A stretch of 64,000 nucleotides of DNA, taken from assembly GCA_902578135.1 (NCBI GenBank), contig CACHBU010000001.1:211569-275568 (forward strand). The letters run 5' to 3'. The notes under the pieces are model-generated. The model had not been told where the DNA came from, did no database searches, and worked only from the letters and a program-made list of their open reading frames with translations. Of the stretch, positions 5,787 to 56,445 are shown in pieces. Position 1 is the first letter of the stretch. Each line of letters opens with the position of its first letter. The stretch comes from an uncultured Candidatus Actinomarina sp. (lineage in GTDB: Bacteria > Actinomycetota > Acidimicrobiia > Actinomarinales > Actinomarinaceae). A program made the position numbers and the translations under genes.

Positions 5787-6221
5787 TTAATTAAACTTCA
5801 GTTTTGCTTTAAGTTCTTCAGTAATGGGTGTTGGCTTCATTGTAGTTTGATCTGTGTAGACATGAACAGCCTCGCAAGAGCTAACTAAATCCCCTGCTTC
5901 TTTTAGAAACATTCCCATAATCCAAGTCATGCTCGAATTCCCTATTTCTTTTACTTTGACGCCAATTTCTATATCTTGATCAAAGTAAAGAGGTTTGTTG
6001 TACTGAACTAACACCTGTACGGTGTGAAAATCTTTTTTTGTCTCTTCGATATCGCTCAAGTAGTCGTAATTAACATGCTTAAAATAGGCAGTAATTGCTT
6101 GATCAAAAAATGCGACGTGATTAGCGTTGTGCATTACTCCTTGAGGATCTAGTTCGTAGTATCGAACTGTTGCCTCCCAAAAAACTTCAAATTGGTCTTT
6201 TGATAGTTTTATTTTTGACAC
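5787..6221 (-). CDS. Acyl-CoA thioesterase, hotdog fold (YbgC/4HBT-like)
   Basis: 144 aa. VRYYELDPQGVMHNANHVAFFDQA matches the catalytic Asp region of 4HBT/YbgC thioesterases. Confidence 0.7.
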   Translation of the reverse strand: MSKIKLSKDQFEVFWEATVRYYELDPQGVMHNANHVAFFDQAITAYFKHVNYDYLSDIEETKKDFHTVQVLVQYNKPLYFDQDIEIGVKVKEIGNSSMTWIMGMFLKEAGDLVSSCEAVHVYTDQTTMKPTPITEELKAKLKFN

Positions 6222-7424
6222 TTAAACAAATATTTGGGTTTTTGGTTGTATTCCGCCGGTAAGCGGCATGGCATATTCAAAAAAGTCATTTGTAACATAT
6301 GGTTTGGATTCGTCTAAAAATTCCTTAGGCATGTCTTTTGTGTGTTTAGCGACTTTGCTCAAATCTACAACATCAACATCGCAGTGGTATGTTTCTGACA
6401 GTTGTCTTTTAAGAACTACCGATCCACTCTGTAATTCTTTTGAAGAAACCACAGCATGGTGTCCAACCCTCTCAGCTTCTTCAGCGTCTATATCGGATAC
6501 ATCGGCTAAAAATGATCTCTGTAAATAACCAAAGGTGTCCGCCCTAACTCTTGCACCATCAATATGTTGCGAAACTATATTTGTTAATGTATCACCTAGC
6601 GCACCTGAGCCTGAAAGTTGGATGTTCCCATGGCTATCTTTTTTTCCTGCCAGTCCAGAGCCTGTTTCGCTAGCATATGTTTGAAGAAAATATTCACCAT
6701 CTTCGTTGTGAATTCCTTCAGAAACAGCAACTACACACCTTCCAAGCGAATCATATACTTCTTTAACTTCTTTCAAAAAGGTTTCAATGTTGAACACTTT
6801 TTCAGGGACATATACTAAATGCGGACCATCTTCTTCGGTAGATTTCCCCAAGGTACTTGCAGCAGTAAGCCACCCCGCATGTCTGCCCATTAAAACGTTT
6901 ATTTTAATACCTCTGAGACTCCTGTTGTCTGCATCATCGCCCTGAAAAGCATGAGCTACAAATCGAGCTGCTGAACCGTATCCGGGACAATGGTCTGTTT
7001 CACGTAAATCATTGTCAATTGTTTTAGGTATATGGAATGCTTTCATTTCATATCCTATAGATTTTGCCCCTTCAGAAACTAAATTAGCTGTTTCAGCCGA
7101 ATCATTACCTCCTATGTAGAAAAAGTTTCTGATATTCTGTTGTTCAAATATTGAAACAAGTTTTTCTATATCTGAATCAGTAGGCTTTTTTCTTACTGAA
7201 CCTAAAGCTGCAGCAGGTGTTTTTCCAATGCCATAAAGTTGTGCTTCAGAGAGATTTGAAAGATCTACAAAATCTTCATTGAGCATTCCTTCTAGTCCGT
7301 GCTTTGCTCCTAGGATTTCATCAAAATCTGATTTAGTTGCTTCTTTAATAAAGCCCACTAGTGATCTGTTTATGACAGCTGTTGGACCGCCTGATTGTCC
7401 AATAACTGCTTTGCCTAGTGGCAT
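6222..7424 (-). CDS. 6-phosphofructokinase family, probably the pyrophosphate-dependent type
   Basis: GQSGGPTAVINRSL, IGGNDSAETA, IPKTIDNDL and PGYGSAA motifs. The 400 aa length and GGND instead of GGDG fit the PPi-PFK clades. Donor specificity is not proven. Confidence 0.85.
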   Translation of the reverse strand: MPLGKAVIGQSGGPTAVINRSLVGFIKEATKSDFDEILGAKHGLEGMLNEDFVDLSNLSEAQLYGIGKTPAAALGSVRKKPTDSDIEKLVSIFEQQNIRNFFYIGGNDSAETANLVSEGAKSIGYEMKAFHIPKTIDNDLRETDHCPGYGSAARFVAHAFQGDDADNRSLRGIKINVLMGRHAGWLTAASTLGKSTEEDGPHLVYVPEKVFNIETFLKEVKEVYDSLGRCVVAVSEGIHNEDGEYFLQTYASETGSGLAGKKDSHGNIQLSGSGALGDTLTNIVSQHIDGARVRADTFGYLQRSFLADVSDIDAEEAERVGHHAVVSSKELQSGSVVLKRQLSETYHCDVDVVDLSKVAKHTKDMPKEFLDESKPYVTNDFFEYAMPLTGGIQPKTQIFV

Positions 7425-7427
7425 TTT

Positions 7428-8336
7428 CTAACTCCCGTTTTGATATACCGAAATAAAGCTTAAATAAGAATTGGCAATTTCTGAAACTGCTTCTTCTCTG
7501 GATTTATCACCACTGTGCCAACCTTTAAGTGAGTTCCAAAATATTGATCTTCCAATTGCAAATCCCTTGTAGCCATCTACAGATGAGCCTGCTCTGAGCC
7601 ATTCATTAACTTTTTCATCATTCGCTCCTCTTCCCAGAACAACTGCAATTACATCTTCTCTTCCGCCATCTTTAATAACTTTTGAAACATTTTCATTGTC
7701 TTCAACGGTGTCTAGGCCTTCAATCTTCCATATATCTGGATCAGCACCTTTTTCCCTCATTTCCTCAACAACCTGGATGGCAAGCTTAGGTCTTATCTCA
7801 GAGTCATATTTAGCCTGGTCTCCATCTACACTTGCTAGCTGTTCTTCAGTCGCAGGCACTAAAAACTCTAAAAGAAACTTTCTTTCGTTTTCATCTAGCC
7901 AGTCTGAAAGAGTTTTTATTCTTTCACCTTGAACCTGTCTAGTATAAGAATCGTCACTAGGATTCCAACGTACAAGTATCTTTACAAAATCTGCATTCAC
8001 TTCTTTTATTTTTTCACCGAAATCACTACCGTATTCAAAGTCAAAAATCTTTTGTCCTGACTTTTCAGCGGGGGCTGCAAACTTTATTCCCATTTCTTTA
8101 GCTTTTTCTTGAACTTGAAGACCAAAAGTCTCATCAACAAGAATTGCTGGATCTCCTCCATTTATACCTTTGTTTTGTGCTTCAAGAAAACCGTCAAAAA
8201 TAATGTCTTTCATGGAAGATACACGAGAAACTTCATCCTCGGTCGGAGCTCTGCCTTCAACACCAAGAAGACCTTTTGTTAGTGTGCCTCTGTGGTCAAA
8301 TGCAAGAATGTATAAGTCGTTTGAATACCCTTTCAT
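7428..8336 (-). CDS. LacD/DUF2090-like class I aldolase-fold protein (putative sugar-bisphosphate aldolase)
   Basis: I prefer the ATG at 8336 (MKGYSNDLYILAFDHRG). LAFDHRG, FLLEFLVP, WKIEG and GFAIGRSIFW resemble tagatose-bisphosphate aldolase/DUF2090 TIM barrels. The gene sits 3 nt upstream of the PFK gene. Confidence 0.55.
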   Translation of the reverse strand: MKGYSNDLYILAFDHRGTLTKGLLGVEGRAPTEDEVSRVSSMKDIIFDGFLEAQNKGINGGDPAILVDETFGLQVQEKAKEMGIKFAAPAEKSGQKIFDFEYGSDFGEKIKEVNADFVKILVRWNPSDDSYTRQVQGERIKTLSDWLDENERKFLLEFLVPATEEQLASVDGDQAKYDSEIRPKLAIQVVEEMREKGADPDIWKIEGLDTVEDNENVSKVIKDGGREDVIAVVLGRGANDEKVNEWLRAGSSVDGYKGFAIGRSIFWNSLKGWHSGDKSREEAVSEIANSYLSFISVYQNGS

Positions 8337-8346
8337 GAACTCTCCT

Positions 8347-9267
8347 TTATACTTTTGCCCTTGTACTGTCTCGTGTGAGTACAAATAGCATAATTACTAA
8401 AAACAATAATGATACTAATAGTAAATAGTCTGAATATGGGTTGGTTTCAGCACTTTCTTCAAAAGTAGCTGATAAAGTTTCAACAAGCTCTAGCGTTGTT
8501 GTTCCCCAGTTGCTGGCTAATGTATCATCCAAAAAATATACATTGGAACTCTGAACTGCATTTATGTTTTCCCAACCATCTCTAATTGAAAGGTCTTTAT
8601 TTAAATAGTCAGAGTGTCCTACAACAATAAAGTCGGGGTTTGCTTCTATTACCATTTCTTCAGTTAATGCGGGGTATCCGCTTCCGAAAGGATCCTCCTC
8701 GGAGTTAGCAATATTTATAATTCCAAGTGAGTTGTAAATTTCTCCAATTAATGAGTTTGCATTTACACTATAAATTCCATAGGAATAACCAATTTCGTGA
8801 TATACGGTAATATTTTCATAATTTGAATTGCTTATGATTCTATTAATTGCAAGCTTCATATCTCTTATTTGTGTTTCTGCAACAGTTTTTTTATCTACTA
8901 ATTCTCCAATAATTTGAATCTGAGAATACACATCTTCAAGATTTCTAGCAGGAGGTAAAAGGATATGGTTAATCTCTTGTGCTTCCAATCCTTCAATAAT
9001 GCCATTGAAATCAAAAGCAACTATTACCATATCTGCATCAAGGGGTGCGAGTTCTTCAGCTGTGACTGTGTATGCGTCAATTCTTTGGACTGGGAAGTCA
9101 ACTTCAGAAAAAGCATCAACAGCAATTAATGTATTTTCTGCACCTAATGATTGAATAATTTCAGTGTGGGTTGTAGACAATGAAATAATTTTTACTTCAT
9201 TCTTTTCTTGCGCTTGATTTGAACACATTGATACAAACAAGGCAAGAATAATAAGTTTCGTTTTCAT
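8347..9267 (-). CDS. Periplasmic-binding-protein family (BtuF/siderophore class), putative cobalamin-binding lipoprotein with a C-terminal hydrophobic anchor
   Basis: I prefer the ATG at 9267 with RBS AAAGGAA (MKTKLIILALFVSMC, lipobox). KIISLSTTHTEIIQSLGAENTLIAVD is the typical Peripla_BP_2 start. The C-terminus LLLVSLLFLVIMLFVL is a TM-like tail. A cobalamin riboswitch lies directly upstream. Confidence 0.7.
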   Translation of the reverse strand: MKTKLIILALFVSMCSNQAQEKNEVKIISLSTTHTEIIQSLGAENTLIAVDAFSEVDFPVQRIDAYTVTAEELAPLDADMVIVAFDFNGIIEGLEAQEINHILLPPARNLEDVYSQIQIIGELVDKKTVAETQIRDMKLAINRIISNSNYENITVYHEIGYSYGIYSVNANSLIGEIYNSLGIINIANSEEDPFGSGYPALTEEMVIEANPDFIVVGHSDYLNKDLSIRDGWENINAVQSSNVYFLDDTLASNWGTTTLELVETLSATFEESAETNPYSDYLLLVSLLFLVIMLFVLTRDSTRAKV

Positions 9268-9353
9268 ATTTTCCTTTCTTACCTTGAGAAAATAAAGAAA
9301 CTTCAAGAATTTATAGAAACTTCATTCCTTCTCTCGAGGACTGTTGTCTTAAC

Positions 9354-9434
9354 AATAATGAAGGCGACCTGACTTATCTTTCGAATTACAGTTGCGGGAC
9401 AGTGTTAGATTTTCACTAACTTCGCTCCATTATT
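9354..9434 (-). promoter_or_regulatory. Cobalamin (B12) riboswitch aptamer, compact form; the expression platform continues to about 9268
   Basis: The minus-strand read is AATAATGGAGCGAAGTTAGTGAAAATCTAACACTGTCCCGCAACTGTAATTCGAAAGATAAGTCAGGTCGCCTTCATTATT. It contains the conserved GTGAAAATC...CCCGCAACTGTAA core and a B12-box-like AAGTCAGGTCGCC. It is closed by P1 AATAATG/CATTATT. Confidence 0.85.
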
Positions 9435-9453
9435 CTTGATAAATAGTAGCAGA

Positions 9454-10059
9454 TTAGTTTTCTTCGTCTTCTTCGTTTTCTGTGTTTTTTAATGCATCCA
9501 TAAGAGTAGGTTCTTCAATATCTCTTGGGACGTCTGGTCTTGGTAAATCTTCATTAGGCAAACTTGCCTCTTCTGAGGATTCTTGTCTCACCTTTTTAAT
9601 TGAATTTACAATCGACATCAGAACTGTTTCTTTTTGTTCGTTTTTTTTCTGAGTTTTAAATTCCTCTTTTGTTGTCTTCTGAGGTGTTTCTAAATGAGAC
9701 TCCTCTAATACAACCACTTCAATACCCCCAACAAGGTCTGAAACGAGGTTGTAGAAAAAGGCGCCGATAGTAGCGAGGGCTGTTTGGGTCAGCATATAAA
9801 CTGCTGCTAAAGAAACTACACTTGTAAAGAGTGTTTCAATATTTCCGACAAGCGAGGCATCTTGATCAAGAAGCGCCAGTCTTCTTGCAATATCTTCAAG
9901 GCCTTGTGGAACTCCTGCGTTAACCAATAAAACCCACATTATTGATAATCCAAGCACCACAGTTAATGCAACAACAAAATTAAGTACTAGCGTGACTTTT
10001 AATACGGTCCAAGGGTCTATTTTTCTGATTATTCTTCTTACTCTGTTTACTCTGACCAT
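9454..10059 (-). CDS. DUF3566-like transmembrane protein (the conserved actinobacterial gene downstream of gyrA)
   Basis: RRIIRKIDPWTVLKVTLVLNFVVALTVVLGLSIMWVLL matches the DUF3566 N-terminal pattern. It sits immediately 3' of gyrA. Acidic tail. Confidence 0.75.
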   Translation of the reverse strand: MVRVNRVRRIIRKIDPWTVLKVTLVLNFVVALTVVLGLSIMWVLLVNAGVPQGLEDIARRLALLDQDASLVGNIETLFTSVVSLAAVYMLTQTALATIGAFFYNLVSDLVGGIEVVVLEESHLETPQKTTKEEFKTQKKNEQKETVLMSIVNSIKKVRQESSEEASLPNEDLPRPDVPRDIEEPTLMDALKNTENEEDEEN

Positions 10060-10061
10060 TT

Positions 10062-12563
10062 TTAGCTCTTTATAGGTATGAAAGCTGAAACTTCTTCTTC
10101 AGAAGACAGCTTCATAACCCTTACTCCTTGTGCTGATCTACTCATTTGTTTTATTTGCTTTACTGCACATCTTATTGCAGTACCGCCTGTACTCATAAGC
10201 ATAACCTCGGTATCTTCATCTACAGACCTTGCTCCAACTAAATTTCCTTTACTTTCCGTAATTTTAAGAGCTTTCACTCCCATGCCGCCTCTTCCTGCTC
10301 TTCTAAATTCATCAAGTTTCGTACGTTTCCCATATCCCTTAGCTGTAATAAATAGGAGAGTTTCATCTCTAGAGGTAGCTGCACCTACAACCTTGTCTCC
10401 CTCTCTAAGTTTTATTCCCCTCACACCCATTGCTGTTCTTCCTTGGGGTTTAAGGTTGGTCTCATCAAATCTAATTGCTTGCCCGTTTTGAGAAACAAGT
10501 ATGACATCTTCTTTGCCAGAGGTCGTTTTTACAGAAACAACCCTATCTTCGTCTTTTAGTTTTATTGCTTGTAAGGATTTGTAATTCGAATCAAAATCCT
10601 TAAAGCTAGATTTTTTAACTGTTCCTTTTTCTGTCATTATTAGTAAAAACTTCTCAGTTTCGTAGTCTCTTGTGTCAATAATTGCTTGCACCTTTTCGTC
10701 TTGTCCCATCGAAAGAACATTTTGAATTAAAGAACCCTTTGCTGTTCTGTTGGTTTTTGGAATTTCATGTGCTTTGGCCCGATATACTTTTCCGCGGTCT
10801 GTAAAGAATAAAAGATATGAGTGTACAGAAGTAGAAAGAAGGTGCTCTATGACATCTTCATTTGATGAAGCAGCTTTAACTCCTTTGCCGCCTCTGCCTT
10901 GCTTTTTGTATGAAGTTGATGGTACAGATTTTACATATCCATTTGCCGATACAGATACAATGATTTCTTCATCTTCAATAAGGTCTTCTATTGAAACCTC
11001 TCCAACGTCTGGAACAATTCTTGATCTTCTTTCGTCGCCAAACTTGTCGGTAATTGCTTCTAGTTCTTCGATTAAAATCTTATCTTGTTTTGCTCGACTT
11101 TTTAAAATTGAAGTTAGTTCTTTGATTGTTTCTTTTAGGTCTTTTTTTTCTTCTTCTAGTTTTTCCATTTCAAGCGCGGTTAGTCTCCTAAGGGGCATAT
11201 CCAATATGTGAGAAGCCTGTATCTCACTAAGTTTAAATTTTGTCATTAAAGATTTTCTTGCTGTGTCTACATCTTTTGAGGCTTTTATGACTTTAATAAT
11301 TTGGTCAATCTTTTTTAAAGCCAGAAGCAAGCCTTCTACTATATGGAGTCTGTTTTCGGCTTTTTGTAGTCTGTGTTTTGTTCTTCTTTGTATTACATCG
11401 ATTTGATGATCAATATAATATTTAATTAACTCAGGAACTGAAAGTACTTTTGGAACTCCTTCAACAAGAGCTACTGAGTTTACGGAAAAAGTGTCTTGTA
11501 GTTGAGTTTGTTTAAAAAGTTGATTAAGTACCACTTGTGGAACTGCATCTCTTTTTAGCTCGACAACTAATCTTGTTCCGTTCCTGTCACTGCTTTCGTT
11601 CCTAAGATCAGAAATTCCCAGGAGTTTCTTGTCTTGAACAAGTGTTGCAATTTTTTCCATAATTCGGTCTGTAGATGCTTGGTAGGGTAATTCTTTAACA
11701 ACTATTGCAGACCTACCTCTGCCTAGTTCTTCTACATCAGCAACAGCTCTTATTTTGATTGATCCTCTTCCTTTTAATATTGCTTCTTTAATTGTTGGTG
11801 TATCGACAACAAGACCACCCGTTGGGAAATCCGGTCCTTTAATTATTTTTAGATAGTCTTTTGGTTTTACATCCTTGTTTTCAACAGTGTATTTAACAGC
11901 TTCTGTTATCTCTCTAAGGTTATATGGCGGCATATTTGTTGCCATTGCTACAGCAATTCCTTCTGCACCGTTAACAAGGAGGTTTGGAAATCTTGCAGGT
12001 AAAACTTTAGGCTCTGATGTTTCGCCTGAATAGTTTGGTTCAAAATTTACAGTGTCCTCATCAATTCCATCCAATAATTGTGATGAGAGAGATGACATTC
12101 GTGACTCTGTGTATCTCATAGCTGCGGGTGGATCGTCGGGTGTTCCAAAGTTGCCTTGGGGCTCGATAAGTGGGTATCTTGTACTAAAGTTTTGTCCAAG
12201 CCTTACTAGTGTTCCATAAATTGCATCATTGCCGTGAGGGTGATAATTACCCATTACATCACCAACGACTTTTGAACATTTTCTAAATGGACCTGTTGGT
12301 CTTATACCCGTTTCATACATAGAATACAAAATTCTTCTCTGAACTGGCTTTAAACCGTCCTTAACATCTGGCAAGGCTCTTGATACAATTACAGACATTG
12401 CGTAGTCTAAAAAAGACTTCGATATTTCGTCTTCTACAGCAATAGTTCCGTTTGATGTGTTGTCAGTGTTTTTTTCTTCTTTTATAGATTTTTTAGCTGC
12501 TGGTTTTTTAGCTGCTGGTTTTTTAGCTGCTGGTTTTTTTGATGGTGGTTTTTTAGTTGGCAT
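10062..12563 (-). CDS. gyrA: DNA gyrase subunit A, with a Lys/Pro/Ala-rich N-terminal extension
   Basis: AMSVIVSRALPDVKDGLKPVQRRILY and the active-site region AAMRYTESRM, plus C-terminal beta-pinwheel repeats. The ATG overlaps the gyrB stop by 1 nt (TAATG). Confidence 0.97.
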   Translation of the reverse strand: MPTKKPPSKKPAAKKPAAKKPAAKKSIKEEKNTDNTSNGTIAVEDEISKSFLDYAMSVIVSRALPDVKDGLKPVQRRILYSMYETGIRPTGPFRKCSKVVGDVMGNYHPHGNDAIYGTLVRLGQNFSTRYPLIEPQGNFGTPDDPPAAMRYTESRMSSLSSQLLDGIDEDTVNFEPNYSGETSEPKVLPARFPNLLVNGAEGIAVAMATNMPPYNLREITEAVKYTVENKDVKPKDYLKIIKGPDFPTGGLVVDTPTIKEAILKGRGSIKIRAVADVEELGRGRSAIVVKELPYQASTDRIMEKIATLVQDKKLLGISDLRNESSDRNGTRLVVELKRDAVPQVVLNQLFKQTQLQDTFSVNSVALVEGVPKVLSVPELIKYYIDHQIDVIQRRTKHRLQKAENRLHIVEGLLLALKKIDQIIKVIKASKDVDTARKSLMTKFKLSEIQASHILDMPLRRLTALEMEKLEEEKKDLKETIKELTSILKSRAKQDKILIEELEAITDKFGDERRSRIVPDVGEVSIEDLIEDEEIIVSVSANGYVKSVPSTSYKKQGRGGKGVKAASSNEDVIEHLLSTSVHSYLLFFTDRGKVYRAKAHEIPKTNRTAKGSLIQNVLSMGQDEKVQAIIDTRDYETEKFLLIMTEKGTVKKSSFKDFDSNYKSLQAIKLKDEDRVVSVKTTSGKEDVILVSQNGQAIRFDETNLKPQGRTAMGVRGIKLREGDKVVGAATSRDETLLFITAKGYGKRTKLDEFRRAGRGGMGVKALKITESKGNLVGARSVDEDTEVMLMSTGGTAIRCAVKQIKQMSRSAQGVRVMKLSSEEEVSAFIPIKS
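12489..12533 (-). repeat. Perfect 15-nt x3 tandem repeat inside the gyrA 5' end
   Basis: TTTTTTAGCTGCTGG is repeated three times on the plus strand. On the coding strand this is CCAGCAGCTAAAAAA, encoding (PAAKK)x3. Confidence 0.95.
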
Positions 12564-48022: not shown

Positions 48023-49318
48023 ATGGCTCAACAAGAAATAATTAATTTGCTATCTGAGATGGTAAAAATTCCATCCATAAGTTCTGATAAAGATCATAGA
48101 GATGATGTGGATGCTTCGGCCCAATTCGTAGAAAACTTATTTGCGGACCTTGGTCTCAATACACAAGTTATAAAAGTACCAGGAGGAATGCCTGCTGTGG
48201 TCGCTCACACTGAGATTGATCCGGATAAAAAGACTGTACTTTTATATGCTCACCATGATGTTCAGCCTGTCGGAGATATAAGTTTATGGAACACTGACCC
48301 TTTTCAACCAGAAATGATTGATGGAAGACTATTTGGTAGAGGATCTGGAGATAATAAATCTGGAGTAGTGGTACATTACAACGTCATAAAACAATTAATT
48401 GATGTACTGCCTGTAAACATAAAAGTGTTTATTGAAGGTGAAGAAGAAATTGGGTCTCCAACAATGGCTTTATTCATAGAGCAAAACAGAGAGGCGCTTG
48501 AGGCAGATGTAATAATTATTGCTGATTCTGGAAATGTAAAAATTGGAGTACCAACCATTACAACAACCCTTAGAGGTTTAGTTGATGGAATTATTGAAGT
48601 TGATCAACCAATGAGGCCAATTCATTCAGGTGTTGGAGGAGGTGTTGTACCAGATGCTTTTATGGTACTTAGTAGAATCATTTCCTCGTTTCATGATGAC
48701 AAAGGAAATCTCATGATAGAAGGTTTAACTTCTACAGATATGAAAGTTACCGAACTTGAAGAGTCTTTTCTTAAAAAAATGCTTGGCTCAGATGATATTA
48801 CCCTTTTTGATACTGAAAGTATTTCAAAGAGACTCTGGTTAGAACCAGCTTTAGATGTACTTGCAATCGACGCCCCGCCAGTAAAAGAAGCTGTTAACTT
48901 AGTTATTCCAAAAGCTAGAGCAAAAGTCAGTTTAAGACTTCCACCAACAGAAGACCCAGACCATGCAATGAAAATGCTCGAGGAGCACATAATGAAAAAT
49001 ATTCCTTGGGATGCATCAGTTAAGTTTATTCCAAACTCTAAAGGCTCGGGAGTTGTGGCAGATCCAAACAAACCCTTCACTACAGAATTAGTAAATAGTT
49101 TTAACTCTACTTGGGAAAATGAAACTGCATATATAGGAGTAGGCGGATCAATTCCTTTTGCTAATGACTTTGTCAGAGAGTTTCCAAATGCAGAACTTGT
49201 TTTAATTGGAGCTGCTGATGAAGAACTAGGAAATGCTCATGCTCCAAATGAAAGCGTACAAATCGACCATATTGAGATGCTTATTGAAAGTCTTGTTAAG
49301 ACTTTGAAGAATATTTAG
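48023..49318 (+). CDS. M20 family metallopeptidase/dipeptidase
   Basis: LLYAHHDVQPVG, GRGSGDNKSG, EGEEEIGS, and a C-terminal HAPNE motif. Confidence 0.8.
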   Translation: MAQQEIINLLSEMVKIPSISSDKDHRDDVDASAQFVENLFADLGLNTQVIKVPGGMPAVVAHTEIDPDKKTVLLYAHHDVQPVGDISLWNTDPFQPEMIDGRLFGRGSGDNKSGVVVHYNVIKQLIDVLPVNIKVFIEGEEEIGSPTMALFIEQNREALEADVIIIADSGNVKIGVPTITTTLRGLVDGIIEVDQPMRPIHSGVGGGVVPDAFMVLSRIISSFHDDKGNLMIEGLTSTDMKVTELEESFLKKMLGSDDITLFDTESISKRLWLEPALDVLAIDAPPVKEAVNLVIPKARAKVSLRLPPTEDPDHAMKMLEEHIMKNIPWDASVKFIPNSKGSGVVADPNKPFTTELVNSFNSTWENETAYIGVGGSIPFANDFVREFPNAELVLIGAADEELGNAHAPNESVQIDHIEMLIESLVKTLKNI

Positions 49319-49335
49319 ACCCTAAAATTACACAA

Positions 49336-50367
49336 ATGGAAATAGGAATAGACTCCTTTGCTAAGAAGACTTTAACTAATGAAGGAGGCACTGTTGACGA
49401 TGATGCAAAGGCCATGTCGGAGCTCATTGAACGAATTGTACATGCCGATAAAGTTGGGATTGATGTTTTTGGTCTTGGGGAACACCATAGAGAAGAGTTT
49501 CTAGACTCTGCAGCTCATAATATACTCTCAGCTGCAGCATCAAAAACAGATAGTATACGATTAACTAGTGCAGTCGCAGTAATTAGTGCAATGGATCCAG
49601 TAAGATTATTTCAAAATTACTCAACATTAGATTTGATTTCTAACGGCAGAGCAGAAATAGTTGCAGGCAGAGGCTCTTTTACGGAGGCTTTTCCTTTATT
49701 TGGACTTGACTTTAGTGATTATGACGACCTCTATGCTGAAAAACTCGACCTTCTTTTGAAAATTAGAGATGAACAACAAGTTACTTGGGCCGGAAGATTT
49801 AGACCATCTTTAGAAAATCAGATTGTTTATCCGAGGCCTGTTCAAAAAAAATTACCAATATGGGTAGGTGTTGGAGGAACTCCCGCATCATTTGTGCGAG
49901 CAGGTTCCTTAGGCCTACCTCTTATGATTGCTGTAATTGGAGGTGAGACACATAGGTTTAGGCCGTTAGTTGATCTTTACTATAAAGCAGCTGAAGAGGC
50001 AGGCCATGAAAAATCTACCTTGAAAATAGGACTCCACTCACTTGGTTTTGTGGCAAACACAAAAGAAGAAGCAGTGGAAAAATACTATCCGGGTTATAGA
50101 GTATGGTTTAACCAAATTGGCAAAGAGCGCGGCTGGCCACCAGTTACTATGGAGAGATTTGAACAACAAATTGGTGACTTAGGAGCTTATGTTATTGGAG
50201 GTCCAGAAGAAGTTGCTGAGAAATTAGTACGACATAGTAAGGCTTTGGGAGGCATTTCACGCTTTACTTTTCAAATAGACAATGCTGGTCTGTCTCATGA
50301 TGACCTTCTTCAGACATTTACGCTTATCGGGCAAGAAGTAAAACCGTTAGTTCTCGAAAAGTCCTAG
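49336..50367 (+). CDS. LLM-class (luciferase-like) flavin/F420-dependent oxidoreductase
   Basis: GIDVFGLGEHH, a TIM-barrel LLM pattern and 343 aa length. Confidence 0.78.
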   Translation: MEIGIDSFAKKTLTNEGGTVDDDAKAMSELIERIVHADKVGIDVFGLGEHHREEFLDSAAHNILSAAASKTDSIRLTSAVAVISAMDPVRLFQNYSTLDLISNGRAEIVAGRGSFTEAFPLFGLDFSDYDDLYAEKLDLLLKIRDEQQVTWAGRFRPSLENQIVYPRPVQKKLPIWVGVGGTPASFVRAGSLGLPLMIAVIGGETHRFRPLVDLYYKAAEEAGHEKSTLKIGLHSLGFVANTKEEAVEKYYPGYRVWFNQIGKERGWPPVTMERFEQQIGDLGAYVIGGPEEVAEKLVRHSKALGGISRFTFQIDNAGLSHDDLLQTFTLIGQEVKPLVLEKS

Positions 50368-50368
50368 A

Positions 50369-50461
50369 TTTACACAAACTTTACACAAATTTAACAAAAT
50401 CCAGCACAAGCCCAATAAAAATTTTGTAGACTGACCATGTAATTTAGAGAAGTTAAATTAC
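50369..50461 (+). promoter_or_regulatory. Candidate control region of the 50.5-55.9 kb array: a direct repeat plus a 5' hairpin
   Basis: TTTACACAAA occurs twice with an 11-nt period (50369-50390). A possible promoter is TTAACA-17-AATAAA at 50391-50419. A hairpin GTAATTTA-gagaagt-TAAATTAC lies at 50439-50461. RBS AAAGGAG precedes the first gene. Confidence 0.35.
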
Positions 50462-50505
50462 GCCAACAAATTAATAAAAGGAGCTTATGGAAGGTAGGTT
50501 ATCAT

Positions 50506-51075
50506 ATGAAAACATTTTTTACGCAACCAATCGGTAATTTAGCAAGACAAAACGCTATTACATTTCTGGTCTTGAATCTTTTATTTGTAGCATTACAGCT
50601 ATCAGGCACAACAGCACTTGATGCACTTGAAGATTTGATAAACTTCATCTGGGGTTTCTCTCTCGCCACAATAGTTATTACTGCATATTATCTTGCTGAA
50701 GATCATGTTCCAGATTATTGGAGATCAGCACACAGCATTTTAGCTACAGTCATAATATTCGGAACATTTCTTGAAATTACTGAATTAGAGGATGGATTTC
50801 TACCAATGTACTTTTTTTGGGCATTTAATTCATTAATTTATAGCGTTACTCTCAGAGGTAATGGAGTATTTCGTCCAATTTATGAGAACATGACAATACT
50901 TGGAGCACTGTTTCTACTTATTGGAAGCTCAGCAACTTTATTTTTTGGCTTTGAGCCTTCAGATTCCTTTCAACAGTTTGGATTTATTGGATGGCTTGTT
51001 TTGATAATTGGTTTTAGTTTAGGAAATTATTTTGCCTGGGGCGATAAATCAACCACAAGCAATGAAGGGGAGTAA
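50506..51075 (+). CDS. Small polytopic membrane protein, family A member 1 (unknown function)
   Basis: 189 aa with about 5-6 hydrophobic segments. It shares the N-terminus MKTFFTQP, HVPDYWRSA and a C-terminal FAWGDK with the ORFs at 51423 and 52020. Confidence 0.7.
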   Translation: MKTFFTQPIGNLARQNAITFLVLNLLFVALQLSGTTALDALEDLINFIWGFSLATIVITAYYLAEDHVPDYWRSAHSILATVIIFGTFLEITELEDGFLPMYFFWAFNSLIYSVTLRGNGVFRPIYENMTILGALFLLIGSSATLFFGFEPSDSFQQFGFIGWLVLIIGFSLGNYFAWGDKSTTSNEGE

Positions 51076-51077
51076 AC

Positions 51078-51398
51078 ATGGCAATAACTAATTCAAGAGA
51101 ATTTACCATCAATGTTGGAAAGATAGCTGATGCAGAAAAGTGGCTTTCTGAAGGAGCAGATTTATGGAAAGAAATTACAGGCAAAGATGCTGTAATTTAC
51201 AAAGAGGGTTGGGGAGACCAATACAAGATGTTATTTGTCACTACATACGAATCAATGGGAGAGACTGAAGAAGTCGGAGAAAAAGTAATGGCTGACAAGA
51301 GAGTAACCGATTGGCTTCAAAATGGAATGACAAATGGCGATTTAATTTCTGGTGCTGTCGATCGTTTTTTTACAACAATTAAAGATACAAGGGAATAG
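51078..51398 (+). CDS. Single-domain ABM/NIPSNAP-sized soluble protein (unknown function)
   Basis: 106 aa, starting 2 nt after the previous stop with RBS GGGGAG. The pattern of alternating beta/alpha segments and the YESMGETEE motif is compatible with a ferredoxin-like ABM fold. This is my inference, not a profile hit. Confidence 0.6.
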   Translation: MAITNSREFTINVGKIADAEKWLSEGADLWKEITGKDAVIYKEGWGDQYKMLFVTTYESMGETEEVGEKVMADKRVTDWLQNGMTNGDLISGAVDRFFTTIKDTRE

Positions 51399-51422
51399 TT
51401 ATAAAGAACAGGAGTTAAATCG

Positions 51423-51980
51423 ATGAGATCATTTTTTGTACAACCAGATAAACAACAAGCTAAAGGATCTGCAGTCATGTTTATCTTTTCAGAGGTCTAC
51501 GGCTTTCTTGAGCTAGGAATAAATGGTTTAGATAAACTAATTGCGTTTTTTGGGGCAGTCGCTTTTGCTAATGTGATTTTGTTAAGTTACCAATTAGTCG
51601 AAAACAACAATGTTCCAAAAAGTTGGAAAACTGGAACAGCAATGATCGCAGCTGTGGCTTTAGGTTTTGGAATCTTTGATACAGCTTACATTGGAACGGA
51701 AGCTCCCATAAATACTGATGGAATTTACTTGTTTATATTGATAACGATAATTGGATTCAATGTTGTTGCTGAAGGCGTTGTTTCAAACATATGGAGGTAC
51801 ATGGCAATAACTGGCTCATTAGGTCTGCTTTTTTTTATAGGATCTGATTATTTCTTTGATGGCTCATTCCTTGATAATTTGCCTGAATGGGTATTTCCTA
51901 TCGGCTTAGTTTTTTATGTTTCATGGCTTCTTGGAATAGGGGTTGGAACATATACAGCTTGGAACAAGAGAGAAGATTAA
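51423..51980 (+). CDS. Small polytopic membrane protein, family A member 2
   Basis: 185 aa. MRSFFVQP, NVPKSWKTGTAMIAA, SNIWRYMAI and a C-terminal TAWNKRED. Clear paralogue of the ORF at 52020. Confidence 0.72.
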   Translation: MRSFFVQPDKQQAKGSAVMFIFSEVYGFLELGINGLDKLIAFFGAVAFANVILLSYQLVENNNVPKSWKTGTAMIAAVALGFGIFDTAYIGTEAPINTDGIYLFILITIIGFNVVAEGVVSNIWRYMAITGSLGLLFFIGSDYFFDGSFLDNLPEWVFPIGLVFYVSWLLGIGVGTYTAWNKRED

Positions 51981-52019
51981 AAAGAAAGATAATATTAGAA
52001 AAAGGAGAAAGAAAATAAA

Positions 52020-52556
52020 ATGAAAAAGTTCTTTATACAGGACGCTAAAGAAGGATCACAACAAGCAGCCTACATGTTTATAGCTATAAATGTTGTTTGG
52101 TTTGTTGGAGGCATAGCTGAACTAGATTATGGAGTTTTTGAAAATGTACTTCAATTATTCTGGTCCTTCTCACTTGTAGGAATACTTTTAGGATTGAAAG
52201 ACCTTCAAGGAGATACAGTTCCTGAAGATTGGAGACAGGGATACACAATGATTGCTGCGGCAGTGTTTGTTGCATCACTTCTTGGTGTTAATGAAGATCT
52301 AAACACTTCTGGGGTTTGGACATTTTTTGGATTTGTAATACTAGGTTTAGGTGTAACCTCTGAAGGTGTAATCGATAATATTTGGAGATATGCAGCAATC
52401 ATTGCTGGATTGTTTGGAATTGTTGGAGCAGGTAGTGAATTTATTACTGGAACTAGTATCATTGCAGACGACTCTCCATTGCAGTTTGTCGGTTTCATAA
52501 CGTTTATTGCAGGTGTTGGAATAGGTCCACTACTTGCTTGGAATAAAAAAGAGTAG
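52020..52556 (+). CDS. Small polytopic membrane protein, family A member 3
   Basis: 178 aa. MKKFFIQD, TVPEDWRQGYTMIAA, DNIWRYAAI and a C-terminal LAWNKKE. Confidence 0.72.
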   Translation: MKKFFIQDAKEGSQQAAYMFIAINVVWFVGGIAELDYGVFENVLQLFWSFSLVGILLGLKDLQGDTVPEDWRQGYTMIAAAVFVASLLGVNEDLNTSGVWTFFGFVILGLGVTSEGVIDNIWRYAAIIAGLFGIVGAGSEFITGTSIIADDSPLQFVGFITFIAGVGIGPLLAWNKKE

Positions 52557-52559
52557 TTT

Positions 52560-53201
52560 ATGTATGTAAGACTAGGATTAGCGAACCCCAAAGAGGGTAT
52601 GGCAGAAGACGCTTTAAATTACTTTAGGGACGTAGCAATACCAGTATACGATCAGGTAAGCGGACTATTAGGAGCTGCTGCTTGCATTAATAATGAAGGA
52701 CAGCTTATGGCTTGGACAACATGGGCTAATAATGAAGCTAAAGAAGCAGCTATGGCTGAATTCCAACAGAATCTTGCTGGACTTGCTGAACTGTTGAGTG
52801 AACCTCCAACTATTCTTGAGGGCCCAATGGTAGCTGGACAACAATACATTATGGTACCTAAAGATGGTGAAGAACCATTTTTTGCAAGATTTGTAATGGG
52901 TGGAGGCACACAAGAAGAAAAAACTTACGACGACATCGCTGATTTTATGACAAATACTGTTTACACAGCATATGAAAATGTGGAGGGTATTTATGCTTCT
53001 GGAGCTTGCAAAATAGATGAAAACAGTGGGTTTAGTTTTAACTTTTGGACAAGCCATGATGCCGCGCACGCGGCTTCAGAAGTAATTTCATCTGTTGTTT
53101 CAGATGCAGTCGCAAGCTTGATAAAAGAAGCTCCCAAAGAACTTACCGGTGAATGCAACGTTTGGAAAAATTATGTTGATTTTCCAGTAGGAAAAATTTA
53201 A
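52560..53201 (+). CDS. Tandem ABM-like (double ferredoxin-fold) soluble protein, family B member 1
   Basis: 213 aa, N-terminus MYVRL. Two repeats each carry a W-x-x-W-x-[SN]-x-[ED]-A type motif (MAWTTWANNEAKEA; FNFWTSHDAAHA), as in ABM domains. Linker EPPTILEGPMVAGQQY. C-terminus CNVWKNYVDFPVGK. Confidence 0.72.
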   Translation: MYVRLGLANPKEGMAEDALNYFRDVAIPVYDQVSGLLGAAACINNEGQLMAWTTWANNEAKEAAMAEFQQNLAGLAELLSEPPTILEGPMVAGQQYIMVPKDGEEPFFARFVMGGGTQEEKTYDDIADFMTNTVYTAYENVEGIYASGACKIDENSGFSFNFWTSHDAAHAASEVISSVVSDAVASLIKEAPKELTGECNVWKNYVDFPVGKI

Positions 53202-53227
53202 TACTATTGATTTGTTAAAGGAGGAAA

Positions 53228-53878
53228 ATGTATTTTAGATTAACTCAAGTCGATGTACAAGAAGGAAAAATGGATGAAACTATTGCTTACGCATCAGGTG
53301 TCATGGATTCATTTGTTGATACACCAGGACTATATCAGATTTGTATAGCTGAAATGAGTAATGGCCAAATGACTTCATGGACAACATGGGCAAGCGAAGA
53401 TGCAATGAATGCTGCAGGCCCTCAAATTCAAGAAGCTTTGGGAGGATTGGCAGATTATATTGCTGGCCCGCCAACTATTTCACATGGTCCAATGAATGCT
53501 GGGCAAATTTACCAAAACTTAATGAAGGGTGAGAGAGACGGAGAGCCTTTTGTCGCTCGACTTGGCTTTGGAGCCGAATACCAAGATGGCAAACTAGAAG
53601 AAGCAACTGATTGGGTACAGAATACTGTGTATGCTGGCTATGAAGGCACCCCAGGACTAATGGGTGCATTAGCTGCCGATGTTGGGGGTTCAGTGGTAAC
53701 AATGAGCACCTGGGAAAATCAGGAATCTTTAGATGCTTCACAAGAAAAGTTTCAAGAAATCATGGAAGATGCCATGAAATATGTAAAAAATCCTCCAACA
53801 GTTGTGACTGGTGTTTGCAACCTTTGGAGAAATAACGTGAGTTTTCCAGCAGGAAAATTATCACAGTGGAACAAATAA
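53228..53878 (+). CDS. Tandem ABM-like soluble protein, family B member 2
   Basis: 216 aa. MYFRL, SWTTWASEDAMNAA, GPPTISHGPMNAGQIY, MSTWENQESLDAS, CNLWRNNVSFPAGK. Strong RBS AAAGGAGGAAA. Confidence 0.75.
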   Translation: MYFRLTQVDVQEGKMDETIAYASGVMDSFVDTPGLYQICIAEMSNGQMTSWTTWASEDAMNAAGPQIQEALGGLADYIAGPPTISHGPMNAGQIYQNLMKGERDGEPFVARLGFGAEYQDGKLEEATDWVQNTVYAGYEGTPGLMGALAADVGGSVVTMSTWENQESLDASQEKFQEIMEDAMKYVKNPPTVVTGVCNLWRNNVSFPAGKLSQWNK

Positions 53879-53890
53879 GAAAGGAAATAT

Positions 53891-54517
53891 ATGTTAAGTA
53901 CTAAAGAAGTAGCAATTGGGTCAAGCATGGCTAGAATTTTTGTTATTGGAATAATTCCTAATTTCTTAATTCAGGCACTTGCTATTGATCCAACAGTCGT
54001 TGATTACAACGAAACATGGGGACCAGTTATCTCGACACTAAATGTGATTACTGGGTTTGCATTGTTATTTGTTTTTGCTCTAACAACTAAGTTGTTTGGA
54101 GACGACAATAATCCATATGTAAGAATTACTGGAACAATAGCTTTTGTTACTCAGTGCATTTTTGTTCAAGATGCATTTGCAGGACCCTTAGCTTCAAATA
54201 GCGACAATGCTTTTTTGACAACTAATCAAGTTTTGCAAACAACAGGAACCAATGGTCCTGTTTGGGCTCTTTTTCTTGGAATATTTACAATTACTGTTTT
54301 GCGAAGCAGTAAGGTAGATCTCTTACCAAGCTGGGGTGTTATTGCAGGATATGGAGCAGCCATTTTAGTAATGACTAATGGTTTAGGTTCAGCCTTTGGT
54401 TTAATTCCTGATGCTGCAAATTTGATTATCTTGATATTAGGCGGAGTGATACTTTACCCTGCTACAGTTTGGGCACTAGGTGTTTCATTTAGAGCATCTT
54501 TAAACACAGCAGAATAA
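53891..54517 (+). CDS. Polytopic membrane protein (divergent; possibly a distant family A member)
   Basis: 208 aa with about 6 hydrophobic segments. It is embedded between B-family genes. I see no shared motif with A1-A3, only similar size and topology. Confidence 0.62.
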   Translation: MLSTKEVAIGSSMARIFVIGIIPNFLIQALAIDPTVVDYNETWGPVISTLNVITGFALLFVFALTTKLFGDDNNPYVRITGTIAFVTQCIFVQDAFAGPLASNSDNAFLTTNQVLQTTGTNGPVWALFLGIFTITVLRSSKVDLLPSWGVIAGYGAAILVMTNGLGSAFGLIPDAANLIILILGGVILYPATVWALGVSFRASLNTAE

Positions 54518-54556
54518 GTCTGAGGAAATTATTCCGTAGAGTAAAAAATTAAAAAA

Positions 54557-55201
54557 ATGTATGCAGTAGCAGTTAGTATTTTATTTCAAGACGGGAAGCT
54601 TGATGAACTCAAAGAGTTCTTTGAAAATACAGGCTTCCCAGCTTTAGAAATTCTTAAAGGAGACTTGTATTCAATAGCCTTTTTTAATCCAAAAGACAAT
54701 GTAAACCTAGGCATTGCTTTTATGAAGGACAAAGAGACTGCAGATAAATTTGCACAAATTAGAAACGAGAACTTGATGCAAATACAAGATCTGCTTGCTA
54801 GTTTCCCAAGGGTTTATGAAGGTGAACTATTGACTGGCAAGACCCTTAAAGACTCCCTTGTTGCAGAACCAAGAGAATCTTTGTTTTTAGCATTCGCAAA
54901 GTTGGATGTAAAAAATGCTGACGAATATATGAATCTCCAAAAAGAAATTTATCTACCAAAACTAGAAAAAGATGAGGGAATTATTTCTTACGGATCAATT
55001 AAAATCGATGATAACACAATTGTTTTGTTCGAGTTTTGGACTTCACATGATGCAAAACACAGTTTCGATGAAAAACTTAATGCTGATGAAAATGTATATG
55101 AAAAATTCATGCCATTGATGGATGGATTTACAGATTACTATGGTGAACCGTTTGCCATGAGGCAATTTACCGACTTTAAAGCAGGAGAATCAATTAATTA
55201 A
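54557..55201 (+). CDS. Tandem ABM-like soluble protein, family B member 3 (most divergent)
   Basis: 214 aa. MYAVAV, SFPRVYEGELLTGKTL, LFEFWTSHDAKHSF and a C-terminal FTDFKAGES, collinear with B1, B2 and B4. Confidence 0.68.
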   Translation: MYAVAVSILFQDGKLDELKEFFENTGFPALEILKGDLYSIAFFNPKDNVNLGIAFMKDKETADKFAQIRNENLMQIQDLLASFPRVYEGELLTGKTLKDSLVAEPRESLFLAFAKLDVKNADEYMNLQKEIYLPKLEKDEGIISYGSIKIDDNTIVLFEFWTSHDAKHSFDEKLNADENVYEKFMPLMDGFTDYYGEPFAMRQFTDFKAGESIN

Positions 55202-55216
55202 AAAAGAAAGGAAATT

Positions 55217-55852
55217 ATGTACTTTAGAATAACGATTCCATCTCTTCAGGATGGAAAAAAAGACGAAGCTATATCTTTTGTTAAAGAAAAAGTTATGCCT
55301 GAGTTTGATGGGACACCCGGACTTCTAACGATGATGGCAGCTATTACAGGGGAGACTTCTGGCGTTAATTTGGCTGCTTATGAAAGTAAGGAAGCTGTAG
55401 AAGCCGTGGAAGAAAAAATACAAGGAGTATTATCAGAAGCAGCTGGAATGATGTCAGCACCTCCTGTAATTTATCAAGGGGATGCAGTTTATGGTAAGGT
55501 CTATCAGACTATGGCTAAGGACAGTACAAGACCAAGCTATTTGAGGTTGGTTGTTGGTGTTGCAAAAGACACAGACGCAGTATTGAGCTTTCTTAAAGAA
55601 AAAGTAGAACCAATTTATGAAGAGTCTGAAGGCCTTCAAGTAACAGGGGCGGTTTTTGACGGAAGTAGCGCTATTAGTTGGAACTTCTGGGATTCTGAGG
55701 AAGAAATGAATGCAGCTGTTGAAAAATTACAAGCAGCACTAGATAGTGAATCAGAGTCTGAACTGTTTGATGGAAGCACTATAGCTTATATGGGACCTGT
55801 GTATGCAGGTAAGTTGTTTATTGATTTTAATGAGGGAGATACTCCAACATAA
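55217..55852 (+). CDS. Tandem ABM-like soluble protein, family B member 4
   Basis: 211 aa. MYFRI, GTPGLL (as in B2), APPVIYQGDAVYGKVY, SWNFWDSEEEMNAA and a C-terminal FIDFNEGD. Confidence 0.72.
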   Translation: MYFRITIPSLQDGKKDEAISFVKEKVMPEFDGTPGLLTMMAAITGETSGVNLAAYESKEAVEAVEEKIQGVLSEAAGMMSAPPVIYQGDAVYGKVYQTMAKDSTRPSYLRLVVGVAKDTDAVLSFLKEKVEPIYEESEGLQVTGAVFDGSSAISWNFWDSEEEMNAAVEKLQAALDSESESELFDGSTIAYMGPVYAGKLFIDFNEGDTPT

Positions 55853-56073: not shown

Positions 56074-56445
56074 ATGAATTTAAAAGATTTTTCAAATGTC
56101 GAATACATAAATCTAATCACATACAAAAAAGACAAAACGCCCATTACAACACCAGTATGGGTTGCAGATTTTTCAAACTCATTAGTTGTAACAACAAGCC
56201 TTAACGCTGGAAAAGTAAAGAGGGTTCGAAACAACGGTAAAGCAACAATTTATACCACCAACCAAAACGGCTCTAAAAAGTTATCAGAAAGCCTTGACCT
56301 AAAAGCATCTCTTATAGAGGATGCGGATATCAAAAAGCAGGCTGCAGATATAATCAGGAAAAAATATGGCATGATGGCAAAAATGATTATGAAAGGACCT
56401 GATAAGAATCGGGCAATTATAAAACTAGAAGAAAGGAGAGGGTAA
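56074..56445 (+). CDS. PPOX-class (pyridoxamine-5'-phosphate-oxidase-like) flavin/F420-binding split-barrel protein
   Basis: 123 aa. INLITYKKDKTPITTPVWV...GKVKRVRNNGKATI fits the small actinobacterial PPOX/F420 family pattern. Confidence 0.6.
   Translation: MNLKDFSNVEYINLITYKKDKTPITTPVWVADFSNSLVVTTSLNAGKVKRVRNNGKATIYTTNQNGSKKLSESLDLKASLIEDADIKKQAADIIRKKYGMMAKMIMKGPDKNRAIIKLEERRG

Follow-up and report, generated by a model that had tools for sequence, protein, structure and literature searches.

What are the small membrane proteins that are encoded three times within 2 kb of a Candidatus Actinomarina chromosome, and do they belong to any known family? The genes concerned, here called A1, A2 and A3, lie at 50506-52556 of a 64,000-nucleotide stretch of contig CACHBU010000001.1 (assembly GCA_902578135.1, uncultured Candidatus Actinomarina sp., positions 211,569 to 275,568), and this whole stretch is referred to as the window. 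They open an array that also holds genes for soluble proteins of ABM-like fold (the B family) and for a further membrane protein, C208, of what is called the C family. Few free-living bacteria of the ocean are as small or as abundant as the host, Candidatus Actinomarina. A preliminary description, made from the sequence alone, had called the three proteins a new-looking family. The A/C genes are real, selectively constrained and transcribed, and a non-gene reading is excluded. That they make up a real, new and lineage-restricted membrane protein family is stated here with high confidence; their function is proposed far more cautiously.

Three paralogues and a distant fourth member

The three open reading frames (ORFs) were confirmed on the plus strand as A1 (50506-51075, 189 aa), A2 (51423-51980, 185 aa) and A3 (52020-52556, 178 aa), each encoding a six-transmembrane (six-TM) protein. 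The collinearity proposed for them held over the full length by BLASTP (A2/A3 E = 2e-28, A1/A3 8e-18, A1/A2 5e-13), and because these alignments run end to end, A1, A2 and A3 are true paralogues and not compositional look-alikes. The motifs first described were recovered in the order A1, A2, A3: the N-termini MKTFFTQP, MRSFFVQP and MKKFFIQD, the loop HVPDYWR, NVPKSWK and TVPEDWR, and the C-termini AWGDK, AWNKRED and AWNKKE, with NIWRY[MA]AI shared by A2 and A3. A1 represents a universal subfamily, the A1-type, with the tail AWGDK...S-S-x-E. The VPxxW[RK] motif was thus present as described, but its placement after the second or third hydrophobic segment was not upheld, as it forms a 2-residue turn between TM2 and TM3 in the structural model and not a long loop.

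For motif counts and modelling, the A family was aligned as 37 non-redundant sequences. An M[KR]xF[FAVL] N-terminus and a [VIL]Pxx[WF][RKE] turn each occurred in 34 of the 37, and a G-x3-[IVL][WYF]x[YN] loop following TM4 and an A[WF][NG..][KD..] C-terminal motif each in 36. Invariant or near-invariant columns were M1, F4, F20, L62, P68, G116, G165, G169, A173 and W174. The glycines G116, G165 and G169 were invariant, and the last two form the GxxxG of TM6, which is followed by AW[NG][KD].

C208 (53891-54517, plus strand) is a polytopic membrane protein of 208 aa encoded between the soluble-protein genes B2 and B3. No relation between the A proteins and C208 was detected by BLASTP. An HHalign comparison of the A and C profiles aligned them over full length (probability 94.9%, E 4.8e-8, 174 aligned columns), which makes C208, at the level of profiles, a remote relative of the A proteins and the fourth of their superfamily here. 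The earlier count of three copies therefore stands for the A paralogues and falls short for the window, which holds four members of one membrane superfamily, since the profile-profile match joins C208 to them. C-family proteins retain only degenerate forms of the cytoplasmic motif set of the A proteins. The proposed A/C superfamily would comprise proteins of about 175-210 aa that cross the membrane six times and have their N- and C-termini inside (N-in/C-in), and the AlphaFold2 model and positive-inside distribution reported below agree with this definition.

Subtypes were defined as clusters at 60% identity across 34 loci (L001-L034), collected by scanning prokaryotic genomes, each species being represented by one. 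There were 20 membrane subtypes (11 A and 9 C) vs. 5 B subtypes; the subtype of A2 was found in 5 loci. Locus L029 holds further, very divergent small membrane ORFs (6595-7122 and 8166-8708; 175 and 180 aa) that were missed by the family hidden Markov models (HMMs), and because they escaped, the superfamily is more diverse than the 20 subtypes counted. A 119-aa DUF1428/ABM-like ORF of the same locus (7798-8157) was likewise missed. More distant C-like proteins (P0249, P0252) occupy the same syntenic site.

Search for known relatives

Searches of Pfam, NCBIfam, PADLOC and PHROGs with all proteins of the array stayed at noise level, and there was no match for A1-A3 or C208 (PHROGs returned only noise at E >= 0.04, PADLOC 0), and a profile search of PDB sequences gave 0 matches at E 10. 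When all 37 A members were compared with Pfam, the result was scattered sub-threshold noise, with no family in more than five members and none near its gathering score: ETR1_N in 5/37 (best E 0.0013), DUF2721 in 5/37, TspO in 3/37 and HlyIII in 1/37. DoxX (PF07681) was not matched at E <= 1 by A1, A2, A3, C208 or any of the 37 members. The TspO/MBR matches (PF03073) were at E >= 0.055, far under gathering, and the A3 model has six helices, not five. Models of ECF S-components (ECF_trnsprt, BioY, ThiT, RibU etc.) had no match in Pfam or NCBIfam, and none was among the top 50 Foldseek matches in the PDB. Catalytic residues of rhomboid-like or CPBP type (Ser-His dyad, EExxxR etc.) were sought, and no conserved Ser, His or Glu was found in the membrane core.

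The structure of A3 was modelled with AlphaFold2 from the 37-sequence alignment (predicted local distance difference test, pLDDT, 90.2; predicted TM-score, pTM, 0.86). The model consists of a short N-terminal helix and TM helices at residues 9-33, 40-66, 69-88, 97-113, 120-143 and 153-176. Fold comparison by Foldseek covered the PDB and BFVD, a viral fold library, with significance set at E <= 1e-3, and no match to the A3 model was obtained in either. The best TM-scores were about 0.5, to SatP (5ys8), a de novo six-helix barrel (8qad) and TMEM45A, and this resemblance is the generic similarity of six-helix bundles. An internal duplication of three plus three helices was considered and rejected (HHalign of the two halves, probability 18%).

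These results bear on the view that the proteins have diverged strongly from, but still belong to, a characterised membrane family (DoxX, TspO, PAQR/HlyIII, YhhN etc.), a membership that both the sequence searches and the PDB fold searches missed. The sub-threshold Pfam matches in single members speak for it, as does the fact that fold novelty applies to the PDB and BFVD. The matches are confined to at most five of the 37 members and never attain a gathering score, however, the PDB sequence and Foldseek searches were both empty at their thresholds, and the closest folds are unrelated six-helix bundles that include a de novo design, so we regard this view as very improbable. The A/C family is new, in that no family-level relative was found, and no fold-level relative within the PDB and BFVD. 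The refuting match that the preliminary description had named, to a characterised family such as DoxX, transporter subunits or rhomboid-like proteins, was searched for and did not turn up.

Taxonomic distribution

When 1.84 billion cluster-representative proteins were searched exhaustively with an HMMER profile (E <= 1e-3), no more than 72 representatives matched, about nine of them full length, one spurious and the rest fragments. The spurious match (P0178, 561 aa) was rejected as a low-complexity repeat that is not a membrane protein. The 177 close relatives obtained by a word-based search all came from marine metagenomes and had no Pfam domain and no name beyond 'hypothetical'. Profile and word searches with the C and B families likewise gave only unnamed marine proteins, apart from a few auto-named 'quinol monooxygenase YgiN' by JGI.

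The 34 loci were nearly all titled Candidatus Actinomarina or OCS155 (L001 at 98% identity), and all represent one syntenic chromosomal site. The exceptions were one Caspian Actinomycetota metagenome-assembled genome (MAG) and contigs in a Cryomorphaceae MAG and a Marine group II (MGII) MAG. The last two contigs (L010, BOWN01000001, and L011, LUSA01000094) carry the Actinomarina array at 83-94% protein identity to the window, and because the same array is present on both, Actinomarina DNA has probably been mis-binned here. The A3 gene of L010 is split by a frameshift into ORFs at 6001-6525 and 6383-6535. Homologues with the conserved motifs, for which the preliminary description had proposed a search, thus exist outside this genome, in Candidatus Actinomarina and close relatives only. 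In all searches made, the superfamily was limited to this lineage and to a single chromosomal site.

Topology and selective constraint

Lysine and arginine (K/R) were enriched at both termini, in the TM2/3 turn and in loop 4-5. They were nearly absent from loop 1-2 (0.05 per sequence), loop 3-4 (0.14) and loop 5-6 (0.00), and these same loops are acidic, 6-9 residues long and more variable than most other segments. Conservation is highest in the N-terminus, the VP turn and loop 4-5. From this distribution of K/R across the family, by the positive-inside rule, the topology is that of an N-in/C-in inner-membrane protein, and every motif first described lies on the cytoplasmic face. The suggestion that the conserved motifs look like interaction surfaces is supported by the topology in that all of them fall on the positive-inside face, which is also the most conserved and the most constrained.

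Rates of nonsynonymous and synonymous substitution (dN, dS) were compared between orthologues. At informative divergence, dN/dS of the A genes was 0.10-0.15, whereas FtsX and M20 in the flank gave 0.03; by gene, ranges were 0.10-0.29 for A1, 0.10-0.12 for A2, 0.11-0.15 for A3 and 0.05-0.24 for C208. Within the A3 subtype, the ratio of nonsynonymous to synonymous polymorphism (pN/pS) rose from 0.15 in the cytoplasmic segments to 0.24 in the TM helices and 0.26 in the outer loops. The subtype is under purifying selection throughout, strongest on the cytoplasmic face, and no positive selection was seen in its outer loops.

No strictly conserved charged or polar residue was found in the middle of the membrane; the invariant positions are G116, G165 and G169 together with interfacial W, P and F. 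Judged from the alignment, this pattern would suit a protein that binds or acts as a scaffold more than one that carries solutes by ion coupling. It also bears on a reading of the A/C proteins as stand-alone small-solute channels or capture components (cf. SatP/AceTr and ECF S-components), each paralogue serving one scarce nutrient and the ABM genes being merely co-transcribed enzymes. The size of about 180 aa, six TM helices and N-in/C-in topology are those of SatP and of S-components, SatP is among the best, though non-significant, structural neighbours (5ys8, TM-score 0.51/0.50, Foldseek probability 0.82), flexible islands of the order carry transporters, and many divergent paralogues per genome would suit a spread of specificities in a host with several auxotrophies (PMC7771536). 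Set against this, the 37 members contain no Pfam match to Gpr1_Fun34_YaaH or to an S-component and no NP[AV]P[LF]G motif (0/37), S-components are missing from the top 50 Foldseek matches, the membrane core is devoid of conserved polar or charged residues and there are no EcfT or EcfA genes within the array. A channel or capture role is considered unlikely on this balance.

Array organization and soluble partners

The array is set between a MacB/FtsX-type ABC transporter gene and an M20 peptidase gene, with or without a luciferase-like monooxygenase (LLM) gene, on its left and a PPOX-class gene on its right. All of its genes are read in the same direction, and the gaps between them have a median of 16 nt. 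Of the 34 loci, 31 could be read beyond the first array genes (the other 3 were cut off or frameshifted), and A and B genes were combined in all 31. The preliminary description had proposed checking whether homologues elsewhere adjoin ABM genes; this check was made, and they always occurred in an array with ABM-like genes. A setting between FtsX/M20 and PPOX-class genes, alongside tandem-ABM genes, was seen in the loci whose flanks were long enough (L001-L034 and L035-L038). Gene order followed a simple grammar: the first gene was an A (of A1-type) and the last a B, an A never followed a B or a C, and a C was followed only by a C or a B. There was exactly one A1-type gene per locus, belonging to one of two sister clusters of about 50% identity (17 loci, including A1, and 15 loci), and a terminal B ended every locus that was read through to the right flank.

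B1 (52560..53201, plus strand, 213 aa) starts 3 nt past the A3 stop and is the near-universal soluble member (30 loci). Its AlphaFold2 model (pLDDT 91.9) is a fused tandem ferredoxin-like barrel of ABM fold, with 3mcs (TM-score 0.77, E 6e-11), 3f44, 5f9p and 9kdp as top Foldseek matches. The resemblance to 5f9p, PenE, sulfur oxygenase reductase and HemQ/Cld is more distant than that to 3mcs and 3f44, which are themselves uncharacterised tandem-ABM proteins. B2 (53228..53878, plus strand, 216 aa; subtype in 13 loci) is tandem ABM-like, with a Pfam ABM match (E 1e-4, 22.8 bits) just under the cutoff of 23.1. B3 (54557..55201, plus strand, 214 aa) and B4 (55217..55852, plus strand, 211 aa), the last array gene, are tandem ABM-like paralogues. 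A smaller soluble alpha+beta protein of 106 aa, b106 (51078..51398, plus strand), is an optional cassette between A1 and A2; it was found in 5 loci, always after an A gene and usually with a 2-nt gap. It has a weak NIPSNAP/ABM-like match (Pfam NIPSNAP E 9e-4, under cutoff). That b106 is a half-size B protein was considered and rejected (HHalign against the B family, probability 0.3%).

The LLM gene (49336..50367, plus strand; Atu2307/SP_0267 family), with which the variable region begins on the left, is optional and present in about half of the loci. It matched TIGR03858 above cutoff (477 bits) and Pfam Bac_luciferase at 1e-49. The right flank, p123 (56074..56445, plus strand), encodes a 123-aa PPOX-class (F420-type) oxidoreductase-like protein (TIGR03666 78.5 bits, cutoff 84.9; Pfam PNPOx_N 3e-6), and every complete locus has a gene of this type downstream of its array. 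Actinomarinales synthesise F420 (PMC7771536).

Two other enzyme genes were observed at this site. PutA (1104 aa, proline dehydrogenase/P5C dehydrogenase) is encoded mid-array between membrane genes at L036:3698-7012, L037:2047-5361 and L038:4178-7492. A 362-aa Acyl_transf_3 gene (9378-10466) lies just before the PPOX-class flank in L029.

Variation between strains

Strains with 97% identical flanks differed by whole genes. L006, from a near-identical strain, is without b106; L021 is without A3 and has an extra C gene; in L030 and L025, A1 through B2 and C208 are swapped for divergent alleles. Joints corresponding to the first two forms were also present in RNA contigs, at 51093/51388 (without b106) and 51956/52536 (without A3). 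The array has a conserved backbone (one A1-type gene, B1 and a terminal B) with optional cassettes, and its remaining content is a mosaic of ancient paralogue subtypes that have been gained, lost and exchanged between lineages.

The A3-less form could be followed to its junction. In L021 (6480-6570), the 3' end of A2 is chimeric, with the tail of A3 starting from a shared 8-nt sequence, GCTTGGAA, which holds the Ala-Trp-Asn (AWN) codons; the counterparts in the window are 51956-51980 and 52536-52556. Because the switch in L021 falls exactly at the shared GCTTGGAA, copy number has been changed by recombination between paralogues, and A3 was lost or gained via the conserved C-terminal motifs of neighbouring genes.

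A second exchange concerned a whole block. When L001 (3611-6537) was compared with window positions 49300-52500, a 3.2-kb block of LLM, A1, A2 and A3 was 97-100% identical between flanks of 76-88% identity. Between the two, the A genes had a dS of about 0.02 and M20, in the flank, one of about 1.0, and because of this difference the block is indicated, by sequence comparison, to be a recent transfer between diverged lineages.

Such variability raises the possibility of a variable envelope or conflict locus, in which phage- or toxin-facing surface proteins or immunity proteins would be kept diverse by frequency-dependent selection and shuffled by recombination. Small membrane proteins encoded as paralogues in tandem are a typical feature of immunity loci, and the presence, absence and replacement of cassettes among strains with near-identical flanks, the recent A1-A3 transfer and the variability of the outer loops are all in keeping with it. 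The particulars fit it poorly, however. PADLOC and PHROGs gave no match and the viral fold library none, no toxin, secretion or mobile-element gene lies in or beside the array and none is reported for the order, the outer loops are short and evolve without sign of positive selection, and the backbone is retained in nearly every genome. We therefore rate a conflict locus as improbable.

Transcription and leader

Contigs from four seawater metatranscriptomes tile 50452-55825 of the window at 95-100% identity. Because the array is tiled and the adjacent LLM gene and downstream p123 are almost uncovered in the same runs, the pattern argues for transcription rather than DNA carry-over, with the reservation that expression is poorly gauged by contig depth. 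In metatranscriptome X6, summed contig depth over B4 (55224-55825) was 100-187 and over the A genes about 5; the difference could reflect either much higher expression of the terminal gene or pooled strains sharing this more conserved gene.

The contigs begin at 50452-50480, just 3' of a -10-like box, TAGACT (50427..50432, plus strand), that is kept in position in all aligned upstream regions (32 loci; TAGAAT, TATAAT or TATACT in relatives, TAnnnT) and is taken as the putative array promoter. A generic sigma-70 and terminator scan did not call the box; it found fewer promoter-like sites than in shuffled sequence and was uninformative. Between the box and the first A gene, RNAalifold of 14 loci predicted a leader hairpin (50439..50461, plus strand) with a 9-bp stem and a purine-rich loop, in which 6 of the 9 pairs showed compensatory double changes, and a conserved GGAAGG Shine-Dalgarno sequence follows. 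The hairpin had no Rfam family at the gathering threshold. Riboswitch control of the array was considered and rejected, the one Rfam match at that threshold being an unrelated adenosylcobalamin (AdoCbl, B12) riboswitch (RF01482, 9314-9450, minus strand, 63.3 bits, E 2.8e-9) upstream of a minus-strand gene that ends at 9306.

Proposed function

What, then, might the membrane proteins do? The reading we prefer, and regard as possible while somewhat short of probable, is that the cytosolic ABM barrels have the A/C proteins as their partners in the membrane and that the two together handle lipophilic small molecules. In such a mechanism, the A/C proteins would be membrane-embedded partners of the tandem-ABM proteins, and the cytoplasmic face (MKxFFxQP helix, VPxxW[RK] turn, EGVxxNIWRY loop and AWNK tail) would serve for docking of, or hand-over to, the barrel. 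The divergent helices and acidic outer loops might then determine the small molecule, lipophilic or amphipathic, that the protein binds, passes on or presents. Quinone-like or aromatic compounds are candidate ligands, because flavin/F420-type oxidoreductases flank the array. The contrast of 20 membrane subtypes with 5 barrel subtypes suggests interchangeable specificity modules on a conserved soluble engine.

Gaps of 5 nt or less occurred at 20 of 63 membrane-to-soluble junctions vs. 4 of 86 other junctions (Fisher p = 1e-5, a value that counts related loci as independent although they are not), which hints at translational coupling of a membrane protein to the barrel that follows it.

Besides this dependence among the junctions, several observations weigh against a partnership with the barrels. 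Membrane and soluble gene numbers in the loci are not 1:1. The L001 block moved without B1, so A and B are not inherited as fixed pairs. The conserved cytoplasmic W, R/K and Y residues and the VP turn could equally be structural interface anchors. Invariant columns of the B family are mostly G and P, with E139 and W163 in addition, and form no recognisable conserved catalytic set. Finally, no riboswitch in the Rfam search points to a ligand of the array.

A wider form of the preferred reading is offered only tentatively, and we think it doubtful as a whole. The A/C superfamily would have arisen in Actinomarinales as swappable membrane specificity modules that dock on a conserved tandem-ABM barrel, giving an undescribed, modular and membrane-coupled form of small-molecule processing, possibly cofactor-independent, whose repertoire would be tuned in each strain by cassette exchange and in part by unequal recombination at the AWNK-coding 3' ends.

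Whichever function applies, the array is a nine-gene transcribed operon, reshuffled between lineages, of four orphan membrane paralogues, four orphan ABM barrel paralogues and one small soluble protein. That a streamlined genome invests so much here points to an ecologically important function which annotation overlooks entirely. The A family offers a confidently modelled six-helix protein with no solved or viral structural relative, and the array, with few families, many subtypes and known recombination junctions, is a natural system in which to follow the diversification of a membrane repertoire in wild populations.

Comparison with known systems

To our knowledge, no analogue of this operon type has been described, and a literature search found no paper that joins Actinomarina with ABM. 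Comparison was therefore made part by part. SatP (AceTr/Gpr1-Fun34-YaaH) resembles A3 in having about 185 aa, six TM helices and cytoplasmic termini, and among natural structures 5ys8 comes nearest to the A3 model (root-mean-square deviation 5.5 A), but at a non-significant Foldseek E of 0.8. Unlike SatP, the A family has no PF01184 match and lacks the NPAPLGL signature (NP[AV]P[LF]GL, 0/37); SatP has no known ABM link, and the de novo six-helix barrel scores equally well against A3.

DoxX forms an operon with SseA and SodA in Mycobacterium tuberculosis, in which a small polytopic membrane protein is joined to a soluble redox partner. By description, the array is similar in that a small membrane protein without catalytic motifs would act as anchor or organiser of cytosolic redox proteins, and both hosts are actinobacterial. 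It differs in that the A proteins have no PF07681 similarity and six helices vs. about four, and in the tandem ABM partners and multi-paralogue cassettes. For the soluble side, B1 is closest to the tandem-ABM 'putative monooxygenases' 3mcs (FN1347) and 3f44, the anthrone-oxidase-like 5f9p and PenE 9kdp, which share the fused double barrel (TM-score 0.73-0.77, E 6e-11 to 3e-10) at 7-13% identity; these are relatives of the neighbours and not of the A family.

At the level of the genome, Actinomarina is reported to have only about 40 paralogous genes, a scarcity that the 2020 paper emphasises, rare insertion sequences and no toxin-antitoxin, CRISPR or two-component systems (PMC7771536). Two genome papers on the order describe other flexible islands, and the array is absent from those described. 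It is nevertheless similar to the additive flexible genomic islands (fGI) of Lopez-Perez et al. 2020 (PMC7771536) in its fixed position, strain-variable content, swapped small cassettes and core-like GC content. Unlike these islands, the array has no tRNA boundaries, and it is built from two or three lineage-specific superfamilies around a conserved backbone and not from imported cargo.

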